IMG/VR virus record: IMGVR_UViG_3300010403_000021
Coordinates: 64,001-128,000 of that record
DNA: 64,000 nt
Strand: one strand, 5' to 3'
From: a virus
Taxonomy: Duplodnaviria > Heunggongvirae > Uroviricota > Caudoviricetes
Under the pieces are notes generated by a model, which had not been told where the DNA came from, made no database searches, and worked only from the letters and a program-made list of their open reading frames with translations. The position numbers were made by a program, and so were the translations under genes. Below are positions 10,170-14,517 of the stretch, piece by piece (positions within the stretch are counted from its first letter, which is position 1; every line of letters begins with the position of its first letter).

Positions 10170-10375
10170 TTCTTACTTCCAGTTCCAGCAGAAAATGCAT
10201 TTTTAATAGCATATTTTCTTCTATTATATAGATCTTTATTTCTTATATCTCTATTATGATGCAGTAAACATTTTGGATGTAAAAGTAAATTATCTTCTTC
10301 CAAAAAGACAAAATTCTTGCCAACTTGTTTTTTACATCTAGAGCATTTAATTATAATGTTTATTATTATCCTCAC
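10166..10375 (-). CDS. Small basic protein with CxxC...HxxC zinc-finger-like motif
   Basis: 'CSRCKK...HPKCL'; first gene after the leftward promoter; start uncertain. Confidence 0.5.
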   Translation of the reverse strand: MRIIINIIIKCSRCKKQVGKNFVFLEEDNLLLHPKCLLHHNRDIRNKDLYNRRKYAIKNAFSAGTGSKK

Positions 10376-10407
10376 TTCGTTCGGGTCTGTTCACTTCGTT
10401 CACAGAC
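10370..10407 (-). repeat. Tandem TCACTTCGTTC repeats forming two C-GAA-G triloop hairpins with tandem G.A pairs on the minus strand
   Basis: Minus strand CC-GA-AC-GAA-GT-GA-GG and GTCTGT-GA-AC-GAA-GT-GA-ACAGAC. Confidence 0.75.
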
Positions 10408-10433
10408 TAGCCTTATTTTCTTTTCAAAGTCAA
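10404..10433 (-). promoter_or_regulatory. Leftward HrdB/sigmaA-type promoter for the minus-strand arm
   Basis: Minus strand TTGACT-18 nt-TAGTCT, matching actinobacterial TTGACN/TAGNNT. Confidence 0.7.
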
Positions 10434-10741
10434 GGAGAAAGATTGTGTTGGGGCCGAAGGCCCTTAGATGATCATGAATTCCTTGATCTTTTTAAGAAGA
10501 TATATTAACTTATAATAGGTATTTTAAACATAGTTTAACCCATAGAGACAGTATCTCAGCCTCAACGGATGATCCGTCAATGGTACGATCCAGACCTGTT
10601 TCCCGAACACCCTTATATCTCTTGGCTTATGTAGGACCCTTTTGATAAAGAATAATGGGTTAATCTCCCGACCAGCCATTACTCAATACCCAGTTGTCTC
10701 CCTACCCCGGTTGCTCCCTGAATACACCATACAGGGGCAAA

Positions 10742-10779
10742 GAAAAACCCCTAGAGAGGACTCGACTTCTCTCTAGGGG
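10742..10779 (-). terminator. Intrinsic terminator (leftward)
   Basis: Minus strand CCCCTAGAGAG-10-CTCTCTAGGGG followed by TTTTTCTTT. Confidence 0.8.
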
Positions 10780-10820
10780 CCTTCAAATCTAAGGTCCGGG
10801 TATGTCTGTCGAGTCAACCC
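10742..10820 (-). ncRNA. Candidate ~80-nt small RNA or attenuator leader
   Basis: Bracketed by the promoter at 10827-10856 and the terminator at 10742-10779; no ORF; three hairpins. Confidence 0.5.
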
Positions 10821-10826
10821 GGAAGT

Positions 10827-10856
10827 ATCCTAACACAGAGACCGCGACCTAGTCAA
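10827..10856 (-). promoter_or_regulatory. Leftward promoter, back-to-back with a possible rightward TG-TATGAT promoter (10874-10879)
   Basis: Minus strand TTGACT-18 nt-TAGGAT with TG extension. Confidence 0.7.
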
Positions 10857-10943
10857 GCTGACCTCTGATGTGCTATGATCTTTCCATACAGATATTCTCT
10901 GTACAAGTAATACTATAACACAAGGGACCTAGGTAGCACAAGC

Positions 10944-11927
10944 ATGGATATGAGCTTTTATTGCAATGAAGGTGATTTAAATTTGAACGGTGGTTATGGT
11001 ATAGCAAGCTATAACATAATAACATCGTTACAAAAACTGGGACATGATGTGAAGTTTAATTCTCCATCAAGTCCATTACAATTATTCTTTTCTTTTCCGA
11101 CATTTTATGCAGATTTCATTAGACCTAATCAACATAAAATACACTTATTGGTTTGGGAATCAACTGAGTTTCCAGAAGGTTGGAAAGAGATATTAGAAGA
11201 AGTAGATGAAATCTGGACTGCTTCTAATTGGTGTAAACAGATTGTAGAAGATAATGGTTTTAAAGTAAGTAATGTATATCCGCATGGAATTGATCCAATG
11301 TGGAAGCCACGTAAACGTATCCGATCGGATAAGCTGAGATTTCTTCATGATGGAGAACCGGCGGTAAGAAAAGGTGGTCAGATAGCCTTTGATGCTTTTA
11401 AGGCTGCTTTTGGTGACTCCACCGATGTAGAATTAATTCTTAAAGCCAAACGATCATCATATGTCAGAAAATATGACAGAATGGGTTCCATCGTAGGTGT
11501 GCCTGATGGTAATGTGCGTGTGATTACCAACACATACGAAATTGAACAAATGGTGTCTTTGTATCATCAGTCTCATGTGTTGGTAAGTCCAAGCTACGGT
11601 GAGGGTTTCGGCTTCCCGGCATTGCAAGGATTGGCTACTGGGATGCCCGTAATAAGTACAGGGGAATGGGCACACTACAACAATTATTTAGGGCCTCTAT
11701 CGCTAAATAGTGCATATGTAACGAGCCCTTGGCCACAGGTACACCCCGGTAAAGTAGTCAAGCCTGACTTTGACCATTTGGTAGATCTCTATCGCTATGT
11801 GTATGATAACTATGAAGAGCTAGCCAAGACATATCATCAGCAATCTTTCGATATTCATAATGAATATGATTGGCTTAAATTGACCGAAAAAAGTTTTAGA
11901 AATATTTCCGATCGCTTAAGTATATAA
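10944..11927 (+). CDS. Glycosyltransferase, GT-B fold (GT4-like)
   Basis: 'GGYG..S', 'WESTEFP', 'YPHGID', 'RKGG', 'PSYGEGFGFPALQGLATGMPVIST'. Confidence 0.9.
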   Translation: MDMSFYCNEGDLNLNGGYGIASYNIITSLQKLGHDVKFNSPSSPLQLFFSFPTFYADFIRPNQHKIHLLVWESTEFPEGWKEILEEVDEIWTASNWCKQIVEDNGFKVSNVYPHGIDPMWKPRKRIRSDKLRFLHDGEPAVRKGGQIAFDAFKAAFGDSTDVELILKAKRSSYVRKYDRMGSIVGVPDGNVRVITNTYEIEQMVSLYHQSHVLVSPSYGEGFGFPALQGLATGMPVISTGEWAHYNNYLGPLSLNSAYVTSPWPQVHPGKVVKPDFDHLVDLYRYVYDNYEELAKTYHQQSFDIHNEYDWLKLTEKSFRNISDRLSI

Positions 11928-12368: not shown

Positions 12369-14351
12369 ATGGCTAAGATTGACAAAGATGGTTATATCGA
12401 TAATGGATACCAACAATTCATCGCGACATCAAAATATGCTAGATGGAATGATGAACTTGGGAGAAGAGAAACTTGGCTGGAAACAGTCGACAGATACATG
12501 AATTTTATGCGTGAACATTTGCGCACTAATAACGACTATGAATTGACTGAAGCAGAATACAGTGAAATGCGCTCGGCTATCGCTACAATGGAAGTTCTTC
12601 CAAGTATGCGTGCGCTTATGACCGCCGGTCCGGCACTAAAAAAGAATCATATCGCTGCCTATAACTGTTCATACATCCCCGTTGATTCACCAAGAGCATT
12701 TGATGAAATACTTTATGTCTTGATGCATGGAACCGGGGTAGGATTCAGTGTTGAGTCAAAATATGTAGAAAAGCTTCCTGTTATTGCTGATGAATTTGAA
12801 AAAACTTCAACATTAATCGTTGTAGAAGATTCAAAAGAAGGTTGGCAGAAAGCGTTCAAGGAATTAATTGCTATGCTTTACGCAGGTAATATTGCAAAAT
12901 GGGATGTTTCAAAAGTACGTGAAAAAGGTGCTAGATTAAAGACTTTTGGTGGTCGTGCCAGTGGACCAGATCCCTTGGTTAATCTATTCGAATTTACCAC
13001 ACGTCTTTTTACAAAAGCAGCCGGTAGAAGAATTACAACAATGGAAGCTCATGATCTTGTTTGTAAAGTAGCTGAAATAGTAGTAGTCGGCGGTGTAAGA
13101 CGTTCAGCCTTGATCTCTCTATCAGATCTTAGAGATCCAGAAATAGCAAAATCAAAGGTAGGAGAATGGTGGACAAGCAATAATCAACGTGCTCTTGCCA
13201 ACAATTCAGCAGTTTATGAAAAGAAGCCAAGTCTTGGTGTATTTCTAGAAGAATGGACTAATCTATATGATTCAAAATCAGGAGAACGAGGAATTTTCAA
13301 TAGAGAAGCAGCAGCCAAAGCAGCCGGTAGATCTGGTAGACGTCAAATTGACGGAATTGAATTTGGAACAAACCCTTGTTCAGAAATTAATCTCAGACCA
13401 TATCAATTCTGTAATTTATCCACCATTCCAGTATCAGGACAAGACGACAACATCGATTTGGAAAGAAAAGTCCGACTTGCAGCTATATTGGGAACTTGGC
13501 AGTCTACTCTTACCAACTTCAAAGGCCTTAGAGCAATCTGGAGAAAGAATACTGAAGAGGAACGTCTGTTAGGTGTTTCAATGACTGGTATATTTGGTAA
13601 CACATTGCTTAATGGAAAAGATGCCGGTCTTTCAGAAAGACTTGAAAACTTTAAAGCTACAGCAGTTGCAACAAACAAAGAGTGGGCAACCAAACTTGGT
13701 ATTGCTCAATCAACAGCCGTTACCTGTGTAAAGCCGGAAGGTAATTCAAGTCAGCTTACAAATACATCATCTGGTATTCATCCTTGGTATTCAGAATATT
13801 ACATTCGTACTGTAAGATCTGATAAGAAAGATCCATTGGGTCAGTTCTTGCGTGATTCTGGGGTACCCTGCGAAGACGATGCAATGAATCCTCAAGTTGG
13901 AGATGTATTCTCATTCCCTATCAAAGCTCCAGAAGGTGCCTTGACTAGAGAACATCTAACTGCTATCGAACATCTTGAATTGTGGCTGACATATCAACGC
14001 TCATGGTGTGAACATAAGCCTTCAGTTACTATCAACGTCAAGGAAGATGAATGGTTGGATGTAGCAGCATGGGTTTACAGAAACTTCGATGAAGTAACTG
14101 GTGTTAGCTTCTTACCTTATTCAGATCACACGTATCAACAAGCACCATATCAGCCAGTTAATAAGGAAGAATATGAAAAAGCATTAAGTACAATGCCAGA
14201 GAAGCTTGAATGGTCTTTGCTTTCTCATTATGAACAAACTGATGCGGCTGTTACAGGAACAAAAGATCTAGCTTGTAGTTCCAATAATGGAATGGGCTGT
14301 GAAGTTGTCGATTTGGTTTCAGAGCCAATTGATATAAAACCGATTAGATGA
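12369..14351 (+). CDS. nrdJ: Class II (adenosylcobalamin-dependent) ribonucleotide reductase, monomeric type
   Basis: 'PSMRALMTAG', 'YNCSY', 'VVGGVRRSALISL', 'GTNPCSEI.LRPYQFCNL', 'TCVKP.G', 'WCEHKPSVT', C-terminal Cys pair. Confidence 0.95.
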   Translation: MAKIDKDGYIDNGYQQFIATSKYARWNDELGRRETWLETVDRYMNFMREHLRTNNDYELTEAEYSEMRSAIATMEVLPSMRALMTAGPALKKNHIAAYNCSYIPVDSPRAFDEILYVLMHGTGVGFSVESKYVEKLPVIADEFEKTSTLIVVEDSKEGWQKAFKELIAMLYAGNIAKWDVSKVREKGARLKTFGGRASGPDPLVNLFEFTTRLFTKAAGRRITTMEAHDLVCKVAEIVVVGGVRRSALISLSDLRDPEIAKSKVGEWWTSNNQRALANNSAVYEKKPSLGVFLEEWTNLYDSKSGERGIFNREAAAKAAGRSGRRQIDGIEFGTNPCSEINLRPYQFCNLSTIPVSGQDDNIDLERKVRLAAILGTWQSTLTNFKGLRAIWRKNTEEERLLGVSMTGIFGNTLLNGKDAGLSERLENFKATAVATNKEWATKLGIAQSTAVTCVKPEGNSSQLTNTSSGIHPWYSEYYIRTVRSDKKDPLGQFLRDSGVPCEDDAMNPQVGDVFSFPIKAPEGALTREHLTAIEHLELWLTYQRSWCEHKPSVTINVKEDEWLDVAAWVYRNFDEVTGVSFLPYSDHTYQQAPYQPVNKEEYEKALSTMPEKLEWSLLSHYEQTDAAVTGTKDLACSSNNGMGCEVVDLVSEPIDIKPIR

Positions 14352-14418
14352 TATAATCTAATCACCGGCCCCTTGTGACGGGAGAAATAACCTTCGTGTA
14401 TATTTCGCTACTTTAGGA

Positions 14419-14450
14419 CGAAAGCCAGACTGAAATATGTCTGGCTTTCG
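14419..14450 (+). terminator. 12-bp hairpin after nrdJ (likely terminator with weak U-tract)
   Basis: CGAAAGCCAGAC-8-GTCTGGCTTTCG then GTATTTT. Confidence 0.6.
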
Positions 14451-14488
14451 GTATTTTCAAGTGCTTTATAAAAATACACAGAATTTGT

Positions 14489-14517
14489 TTGCAATATACC
14501 CCTATCTATGTCATAAT
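14489..14517 (+). promoter_or_regulatory. Endolysin-proximal promoter
   Basis: TTGCAA-17 nt-CATAAT with TG extension; GGAGG RBS at 14524-14528. Confidence 0.65.

Follow-up and report, generated by a model that had tools for sequence, protein, structure and literature searches.

A family of phage RNA elements in which the loop of a promoter-proximal terminator covaries with an upstream complementary box

We describe a short transcription unit in a large phage genome, in which the loop of a first RNA hairpin is exactly complementary to the loop of the intrinsic terminator that follows it. Comparison with relatives indicates that this loop-loop pairing is maintained by compensatory change across the family, and that chance is excluded as its origin. 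On the same evidence we conclude that it is a real RNA control element, uncatalogued, with a function that can be predicted only. The explanation that we favour, with slightly better than even confidence, is that the element would act in cis as a pseudoknotted leader, gating a promoter-proximal terminator at the head of a leftward early operon. An earlier note, made from the letters of the DNA without database searches, had suggested a kissing-loop or pseudoknot attenuator of the left arm; the pairing that it proposed is kept by covariation, and gating is the function that we would predict for it.

Results

Genomic setting and anatomy of the element

The window, by which we mean the whole 64,000-nucleotide stretch of DNA that was analysed, comprises bases 64001-128000 of a 139,461-bp virus record. 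The 139-kb genome is that of a relative of the Stanwilliamsviridae, and the best reading is that the element is carried by a large lytic actinophage. Comparison of the DNA with 50,697 phage records gave no match, and an exact DNA pattern search of viral contigs returned one close relative only; the neighbouring glycosyltransferase has hundreds of homologues, including proteins of cultured Streptomyces phages of the family Stanwilliamsviridae. The genes of the window diverge at 10680-10944. Leftward lie small ORFs, ThyX, an exoribonuclease-like gene and a HAD-like gene; rightward lie genes with Pfam assignments as a GT4 glycosyltransferase, endonuclease VII and a class II ribonucleotide reductase (RNR). 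Further promoter-like sites, all weak, are found down the left arm at 10393, 10283 and 10036.

The element occupies the minus strand of the divergent region. A promoter scan recovered, at 10856..10827, the TTGACT-18-TAGGAT promoter to which the earlier note had drawn attention, with a predicted transcription start at ~10820, and we found no minus-strand ORF in the element, in agreement with that note. The same scan returned the rightward promoter-like site that had been placed back to back with the -35. The features are as follows.

10827..10856, minus strand: element promoter, TTGACT (10856-10851), 18-nt spacer, extended -10 TAGGAT (10832-10827) with TGn; from the promoter scan
10796..10822, minus strand: hairpin 1, stem CCGGGU/ACCCGG, 15-nt loop; from the fold
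10808..10815, minus strand: box A in the hairpin-1 loop, GACTCGAC
10780..10795, minus strand: A/U-rich linker of 16 nt, site of a supposed hairpin 2
10748..10779, minus strand: intrinsic terminator hairpin, 11-bp G+C-rich stem (10779-10769 with 10758-10748), 10-nt loop
10759..10766, minus strand: box A* in the terminator loop, GTCGAGTC, 2 nt past the 5' arm and 0 nt from the 3' arm
10734..10747, minus strand: U tract (10747-10739), then a GCCCC motif (10738-10734)
10887..10941, minus strand: candidate second, upstream leftward promoter, TTGTGC-18-TGn TATAGT (10941-10912), and small hairpin (10903-10887); predicted from sequence
10850..10879, plus strand: promoter-like site that faces the glycosyltransferase/RNR block on the right, TAGTCA-18-TATGAT with TG; arranged back to back with the element promoter; from the promoter scan

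Box A (10815-10808) is the exact reverse complement of box A* (10766-10759) over 8 nt, as had been claimed, and the duplex of the two has an energy of -12.0 kcal/mol. Folding of the 88-nt RNA gave hairpin 1 and a 16-bp terminator, at -36.4 kcal/mol (z = -3.9; 1 of 200 shuffles as good). Hence two of the three hairpins drawn in the earlier note are present in the fold; the third, a middle CCUU/AAGG mini-hairpin, is missing from the minimum free energy structure and is not preserved as a hairpin in relatives, and we discarded it. The terminator passed a test for intrinsic terminators, with a G+C-rich hairpin directly before the U tract and a loop that, at 10 nt, is larger than usual. Our terminator scan accepts loops of up to 8 nt, which is why this hairpin is absent from its output.

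The flanks of the element have counterparts in related phages. The GCCCC motif is seen after other terminators of this phage family, and a tail resembling UUUC(A/U)UGCCC trails ordinary terminators and the kissing-loop terminator alike (for example L177, G004:C1:12209-12302); it may be a family-specific terminator or processing signal. A far better counterpart of the candidate second promoter (TTGACA-17-TACGAT, followed by a hairpin) is kept at the same place in Streptomyces phages. Inspection by eye of Streptomyces-phage loci (L104 and others) revealed that this TACGAT -10 overlaps a perfect TGnTATAAT on the opposite strand, just upstream of the glycosyltransferase start, and from their sequences these divergent promoters look as if they should be mutually exclusive. 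Also by eye, and in many Streptomyces-type copies though not universally, the element-promoter spacer reads over 7-11 nt as the reverse complement of the hairpin-1 3' arm and flank (L104, L113, L107, L120 and L023). Only transcripts from the upstream promoter hold both the spacer and hairpin 1, and these could therefore fold unlike transcripts from the element promoter.

Compensatory changes in the loops of related phages

The analytic probability of an 8-nt complement arising by chance is ~0.004, and among 56 U-tailed hairpins of the 139-kb genome we identified a single true terminator, that of the element, whose loop has an upstream complement of at least 8 nt. We assembled loci from relatives as glycosyltransferase neighbourhoods in viral and metagenome contigs; relatives represented in Logan assemblies only (P0002-P0009, glycosyltransferase 75-83% identical) lie outside this set. 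The same layout heads the same divergent region in ~25 distinct relatives, including the cultured Streptomyces phages EGole, NootNoot and Jay2Jay. The matched pairs are 7-14 nt long across these relatives, and nearly every phage has a sequence of its own.

The nearest relative (L003) has a glycosyltransferase that is 99% identical to that of the window, and its promoter, hairpin-1 stem, linker and terminator base are unchanged. Its boxes are CACACCAC and GTGGTGTG, which differ from those of the window by three compensatory double changes, and its upper terminator stem has three more compensatory pair changes. The right arms of the two phages are 96% identical, and the left arms are ~85% identical with non-homologous gaps, as would fit a mosaic junction near 10845. 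We rejected a conclusion of diversifying selection from this pair alone, since such a junction can account for the clustered differences. Within the clade of the window the matched pairs are 8-12 nt long and all distinct, save for two nearly identical loci with a common pair. Two nearly identical copies (L014 and L096) have an internal G.U in the pair, which is acceptable in RNA but would be a mismatch in a DNA inverted repeat. The sequence of the hairpin-1 stem varies in relatives with its pairing retained. Covariation in this clade was counted with a custom script, a MAFFT alignment having misaligned the terminator loops; the covariance-model alignment was not used for pair counts because it placed the loops in insert columns. 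When we compared G.U with A.C mismatches, G.U positions were present and A.C mismatches were absent, in a check for which the script partly caught terminator stems.

A 7-nt hairpin-1 loop complements the terminator loop in EGole, NootNoot, Jay2Jay, LukeCage and others, and the pair differs in almost every phage. For an unbiased test, each of 21 distinct loci contributed one terminator, the first to be met on the opposite strand when moving upstream from the glycosyltransferase gene; complementarity was not a criterion for selection. A loop-loop complement of at least 7 nt was found within the same locus in 19 of 21 cases (median 8), as compared to 29 of 420 cross pairings between loci, and most of those 29 involve loci that have the same or a nearly identical pair in common. 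In an alignment of eight Streptomyces-type copies, both sides change in four of seven loop-loop pairs and in four of ten terminator pairs; 94.9% of cells are paired, versus 32-47% when the partners are slid, and none of 500 shuffles attained the observed covariation score.

We then built a covariance model from those eight Streptomyces-phage copies, with the pseudoknot left out. In the 64-kb window, the element was the sole match to this model (29 bits, E = 7e-7), and we therefore place it in one family with the cultured-phage copies. Applied to five complete cultured genomes, the model detected a single full-length copy above threshold in every one, and it recovered ~19 elements among 75 loci. 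A promoter with a TTGAC-like -35, a 16-18-nt spacer and a TAnnnT -10 lies upstream in 21 of 24 members, with TG before the -10 in ~17. We propose to define the family by a host-type promoter, a box A that is either in a hairpin or single-stranded, a complementary box A* in a terminator loop, positioned 0-3 nt from the 5' arm, and a U tract; the window element has the promoter, box A, a terminator loop with A* 2 nt past the 5' arm, and the U tract. We found no convincing extra copies in the window's genome or in three cultured genomes. An extra match in the terminal repeat of EGole was discarded, as its box is inside a coding region at the end of a gene.

Geometry of the paired loops

In all 22 elements measured, A* starts 0-3 nt past the terminator 5' arm, so that the loop-loop helix would continue that arm. 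The return segment, which leads from A* back to the 3' arm, measures 0-2 nt where the helix has 9 bp or fewer and 2-15 nt where the helix is longer; its length rises with that of the helix (Spearman 0.57, p = 0.005). Such scaling is what A-form geometry demands of helices that coexist, which argues for a pseudoknot rather than mutually exclusive hairpins. We rejected a classical alternative-hairpin antiterminator, given that A* sits in the loop and overlaps the stem by 1-2 nt at most. Across members, the energies of the loop-loop duplex range from -12 to -28 kcal/mol, and terminator loops reach 27 nt. In 9 of the 22 members the linker could not span a straight coaxial stack in which the loop-loop helix is formed and both stems are zipped to the end.

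The loop-loop columns change rapidly. In the alignment of Streptomyces-type copies their mean pairwise difference is 0.36, as against 0.37 for the unpaired linker, 0.21 for the terminator stem and 0.07 for the hairpin-1 stem; that is, they change five times faster than the hairpin-1 stem. Fast change in columns that are nonetheless paired would favour a role for the address itself.

Variants and neighbouring modules

In three relatives (L115, L117 and L118) the module is on the strand of the glycosyltransferase gene and just upstream of that rightward gene; box A seems to be single-stranded there, and the helix extends over 13-14 bp. We conclude from this placement that the module is portable, being bound neither to the left arm nor to an origin. 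The earlier note had also offered a replication-control or primer RNA, for which we found no support: nothing ties the element to an origin, and the module faces the rightward gene in these three loci.

A different arrangement, typified by Peebs, occurs in L092/L108 (Peebs), L109, L122 and L021. The partner of box A is here the loop of an additional hairpin with a weak U tail; the pair is 7 nt, and Peebs and L109 differ in it by one compensatory change. Next comes a strong terminator of its own, whose loop is complementary to a conserved stretch ~60 nt downstream. We also observed at least three alternative modules of ~150-250 nt, conserved and highly structured, between the terminator and the first gene of the left arm (L018, L104, L113, L013, L107, L023, L111 and others). 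The post-terminator module of L003 is common to L013 and is not found in the window.

Two further sites in the window's genome have loop complementarity. Between the RNR and lysin genes (14351-14489, plus strand) is a second promoter-to-terminator unit, in which a TTGATA-17-TATAAT promoter is followed by a terminator (14419-14450) whose loop complements an upstream stretch by seven Watson-Crick pairs and one G.U; the one relative in which this unit is present is 98% identical. Outside the window, in a GC-rich island (G000:C1:56333-56382, minus strand), a 10-bp stem carries a 30-nt loop with a 12-nt perfect complement to the stretch just upstream, and lacks a U tract.

Comparison with known RNAs

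Rfam searches of the whole window at the gathering score, of 10300-11000 at E values up to 10 and of the loci of 13 relatives detected two ordinary tRNAs elsewhere and yielded no family for the element. Covariation of the 8-bp pair in relatives and an Rfam search were among the checks put forward in the earlier note; the first was positive and the second blank, and together they lend strong support to its suggestion of an undescribed phage RNA with genuine loop-loop pairing. The literature searches that we made returned neither an account of the element nor any transcriptome study of these phages. The homologous element of EGole (MK494112.1, 19296-19390, minus strand; L168:1306-1400) is annotated as a 95-nt "tRNA-Arg, codon CGC". 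ARAGORN reproduces this call, with a cloverleaf whose acceptor stem contains a G.G, whose T loop lacks the consensus and whose extra arm is long and unpaired. ARAGORN found no tRNA in the window, and the Rfam tRNA model matches neither the window nor the EGole copy. The EGole entry is probably a mis-annotation.

Several well-studied phage and plasmid RNAs bear a partial likeness to the element. The c4 RNA of P1/P7 (immI) and the CI RNA of P4 are leader-derived phage RNAs with short boxes that pair with complementary boxes in the same transcript, and matched changes in both boxes give closely related phages separate specificities. Those RNAs are processed from the leader, and their target boxes lie over a ribosome-binding site or upstream of a Rho-dependent or intrinsic termination point, whereas the partner in our element is the terminator's own loop. 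We rejected membership of the P1/P7 c4 family (Rfam C4) on two counts, the lack of an Rfam match and the location of the partner box in the terminator loop, not at a ribosome-binding site. At the lambdoid PR'-tR' locus, which produces a 6S RNA and is released by Q, a strong promoter is followed by a terminator, such that a short RNA is the default and the long operon is opened when termination is overcome; at put of HK022, the leader RNA itself overcomes termination in cis. Neither is known to involve loop-loop pairing with the terminator, and only the promoter-then-terminator layout is shared with the element. RNA I/RNA II of ColE1 and CopA/CopT of R1 have fully complementary hairpin loops of ~7 nt, in which a few changes create new specificities, and phi29 pRNA combines in one molecule two loops that are complementary to each other and that covary between phages. 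The pairings of these plasmid antisense RNAs and of pRNA are intermolecular and serve copy-number control or the packaging motor; in our element, both loops belong to a single leader, separated by ~40 nt, and one of the two is a terminator loop. Membership of a phi29-type pRNA family was rejected, there being no Rfam pRNA match and the genome being that of a 139-kb Stanwilliamsviridae relative, not a phi29-like phage.

The nearest characterised topology is that of the guanidine-IV riboswitch (mepA motif), which has in common with our element a kissing loop between a first hairpin and a terminator. In that promoter-proximal leader the loop of the first hairpin kisses the loop of an intrinsic terminator and the ligand stabilises the contact; the kissing loop sterically hinders completion of the terminator stem, leading to read-through (PMC11611296). 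Conserved loop bases form the ligand pocket of guanidine-IV and pair weakly without guanidine, whereas the bases of the phage element are free to vary and make 7-14 Watson-Crick pairs that should form without a ligand; guanidine-IV precedes guanidine exporters, and the phage element an early operon. We rejected membership of the guanidine-IV class, since there was no covariance-model match, the loop bases differ in nearly every member, and no exporter or detoxification genes lie downstream. By class, the best reading of the element is a terminator-controlling leader RNA, with its function predicted from the layout.

Discussion

We envisage that host RNA polymerase would start at ~10820 and make hairpin 1 first, followed by the 5' arm of the terminator and, immediately afterwards, box A*. 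While leaving the polymerase, A* would pair with box A in the pre-folded loop of hairpin 1 (8 bp here, 7-14 in relatives), and the resulting helix would stack directly on the terminator 5' arm. With a helix atop that arm, the terminator would have to close within a pseudoknot, or kissing complex, when its 3' arm emerges. The pairing would then set the share of polymerases that stop, releasing an RNA of ~80 nt, versus those that read on into the left arm, where the small ORFs and the ThyX, exoribonuclease-like and HAD-like genes would be reached by read-through. We infer that the RNA is made, that pairing is co-transcriptional and that termination is modulated.

As to the direction of the effect, analogy inclines us, by a narrow preference, towards a pairing that acts as a built-in "pass" by making it harder for the terminator to zip fully; polymerases would then terminate by default when pairing is blocked. 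Read-through is likewise slightly preferred because the terminator is intrinsically strong, because linkers are short and because guanidine-IV sets a precedent; the steric argument from those linkers, which applies to 9 of 22 members, is the same as that used to explain read-through in guanidine-IV (PMC11611296). The opposite direction, in which pairing would aid the closing of a large-loop terminator, is nearly as probable in our estimate, and accords equally well with return segments that scale with the helix and with loops as long as 27 nt. Moreover, a helix of -12 to -28 kcal/mol should form every time, favouring a pairing that helps termination, and a helix that always defeats its terminator would make the terminator seem pointless unless some factor withdraws the pairing. 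We found no factor that does so. The weak promoter-like sites down the left arm mean that the left genes may bypass read-through, in which case the element is possibly a stand-alone RNA gene.

An unlikely alternative, though the best placed of those we considered, is that the element is a stand-alone small RNA acting in trans by means of a private "address". Loop A or A* of the ~80-nt RNA would kiss the nascent transcript of the same leader, as feedback on its own terminator, or some other target, and pairs would differ among phages to avoid cross-talk between co-infecting relatives, as in the heteroimmunity of P1/P7 c4 and in plasmid incompatibility. This would fit with nearly every phage carrying its own pair, and with loop-loop columns that change as fast as the linker although each change needs a change in the partner. 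For phage T7 there is a published precedent, in which short, promoter-derived abortive transcripts act on a terminator hairpin in trans (PMC2952870). Against this, both partners are in one molecule and would be expected to pair mutually first, and a mosaic junction near 10845 can explain the clustered differences between the window and L003 with no need of fast diversification for that pair. Moreover, four complete genomes were searched for a third copy of the address at homologous positions and none was found; the extra 8-10-mer matches to it occur at chance frequency and are not syntenic. A trans target is therefore unsupported, though a short one may have been missed. More speculatively still, and with correspondingly lower confidence, the element may be a self-addressed RNA timer: as the ~80-nt product accumulates, it would kiss the matching loop of nascent leaders and flip the decision at the terminator, forming a protein-free switch for the early operon. 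As part of that same doubtful proposal, the private 7-14-nt addresses would diversify so that co-infecting relatives cannot interfere.

A structural or stability role is, in our judgement, improbable. The element would in that case give read-through mRNA a compact, nuclease-resistant 5' cap, or else hairpin 1, the loop-loop helix and the terminator would form a quasi-continuous helix of ~25-28 bp that serves as an RNase III-type processing site. The stacked geometry, with 0-3 nt from the 5' arm to A* and helix totals of 25-30 bp, is consistent with such a role, as are the long, highly structured leader modules behind the terminator in relatives, but it leaves unexplained why the pairing should in every case involve a loop from a U-tailed terminator.

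Reverse-complement covariation cannot by itself distinguish RNA pairing from DNA half-sites, and the inverted repeat does lie within a divergent promoter region; hence we considered whether the boxes are two inverted 8-bp half-sites, an operator pair for a phage-specific DNA-binding protein around the early promoter. We regard this as very improbable. The length (7-14 nt), spacing and sequence of the pair differ in nearly every phage, so that each would need its own protein, and box lengths follow RNA-helix geometry. The boxes are always in the loops of hairpins that are themselves preserved by compensatory changes, and the promoter upstream and the U tract are on one strand only. Internal G.U is present and A.C mismatches were not seen, in a mismatch check that was not clean.

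Least credible of all is an ordinary terminator with a chance complement, for which p is only about 0.004 from the 8 nt alone, or a degenerate tRNA gene, as ARAGORN and the EGole GenBank record would have it; both are largely refuted already, by the family-wide covariation and by the tRNA tests, in which the window gave no ARAGORN call and the poor EGole cloverleaf went unmatched by the Rfam model.

Of these explanations, we return to the cis-acting leader as the one that we prefer. To our knowledge, a layout in which a terminator loop makes a tertiary contact has been characterised experimentally only in the guanidine-IV riboswitch, where it is ligand-dependent. In the phage element the contact is a long, freely varying Watson-Crick helix and is therefore easy to test, loop mutations and their compensatory partners being simple to design; the family includes easily grown Streptomyces phages, making it directly accessible at the bench. 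The element could be reused as an orthogonal, address-coded terminator part, and at least one GenBank genome lists it, probably wrongly, as a tRNA, an annotation that can now be corrected. Should the timer proposal prove true, it would represent a so far undescribed class of phage gene control. If instead the leader works as the gate that we favour, the loop of a terminator would itself take part in a tertiary contact, and this contact would control the access of host RNA polymerase to the entire early arm on the left in a widespread family of large actinophages.
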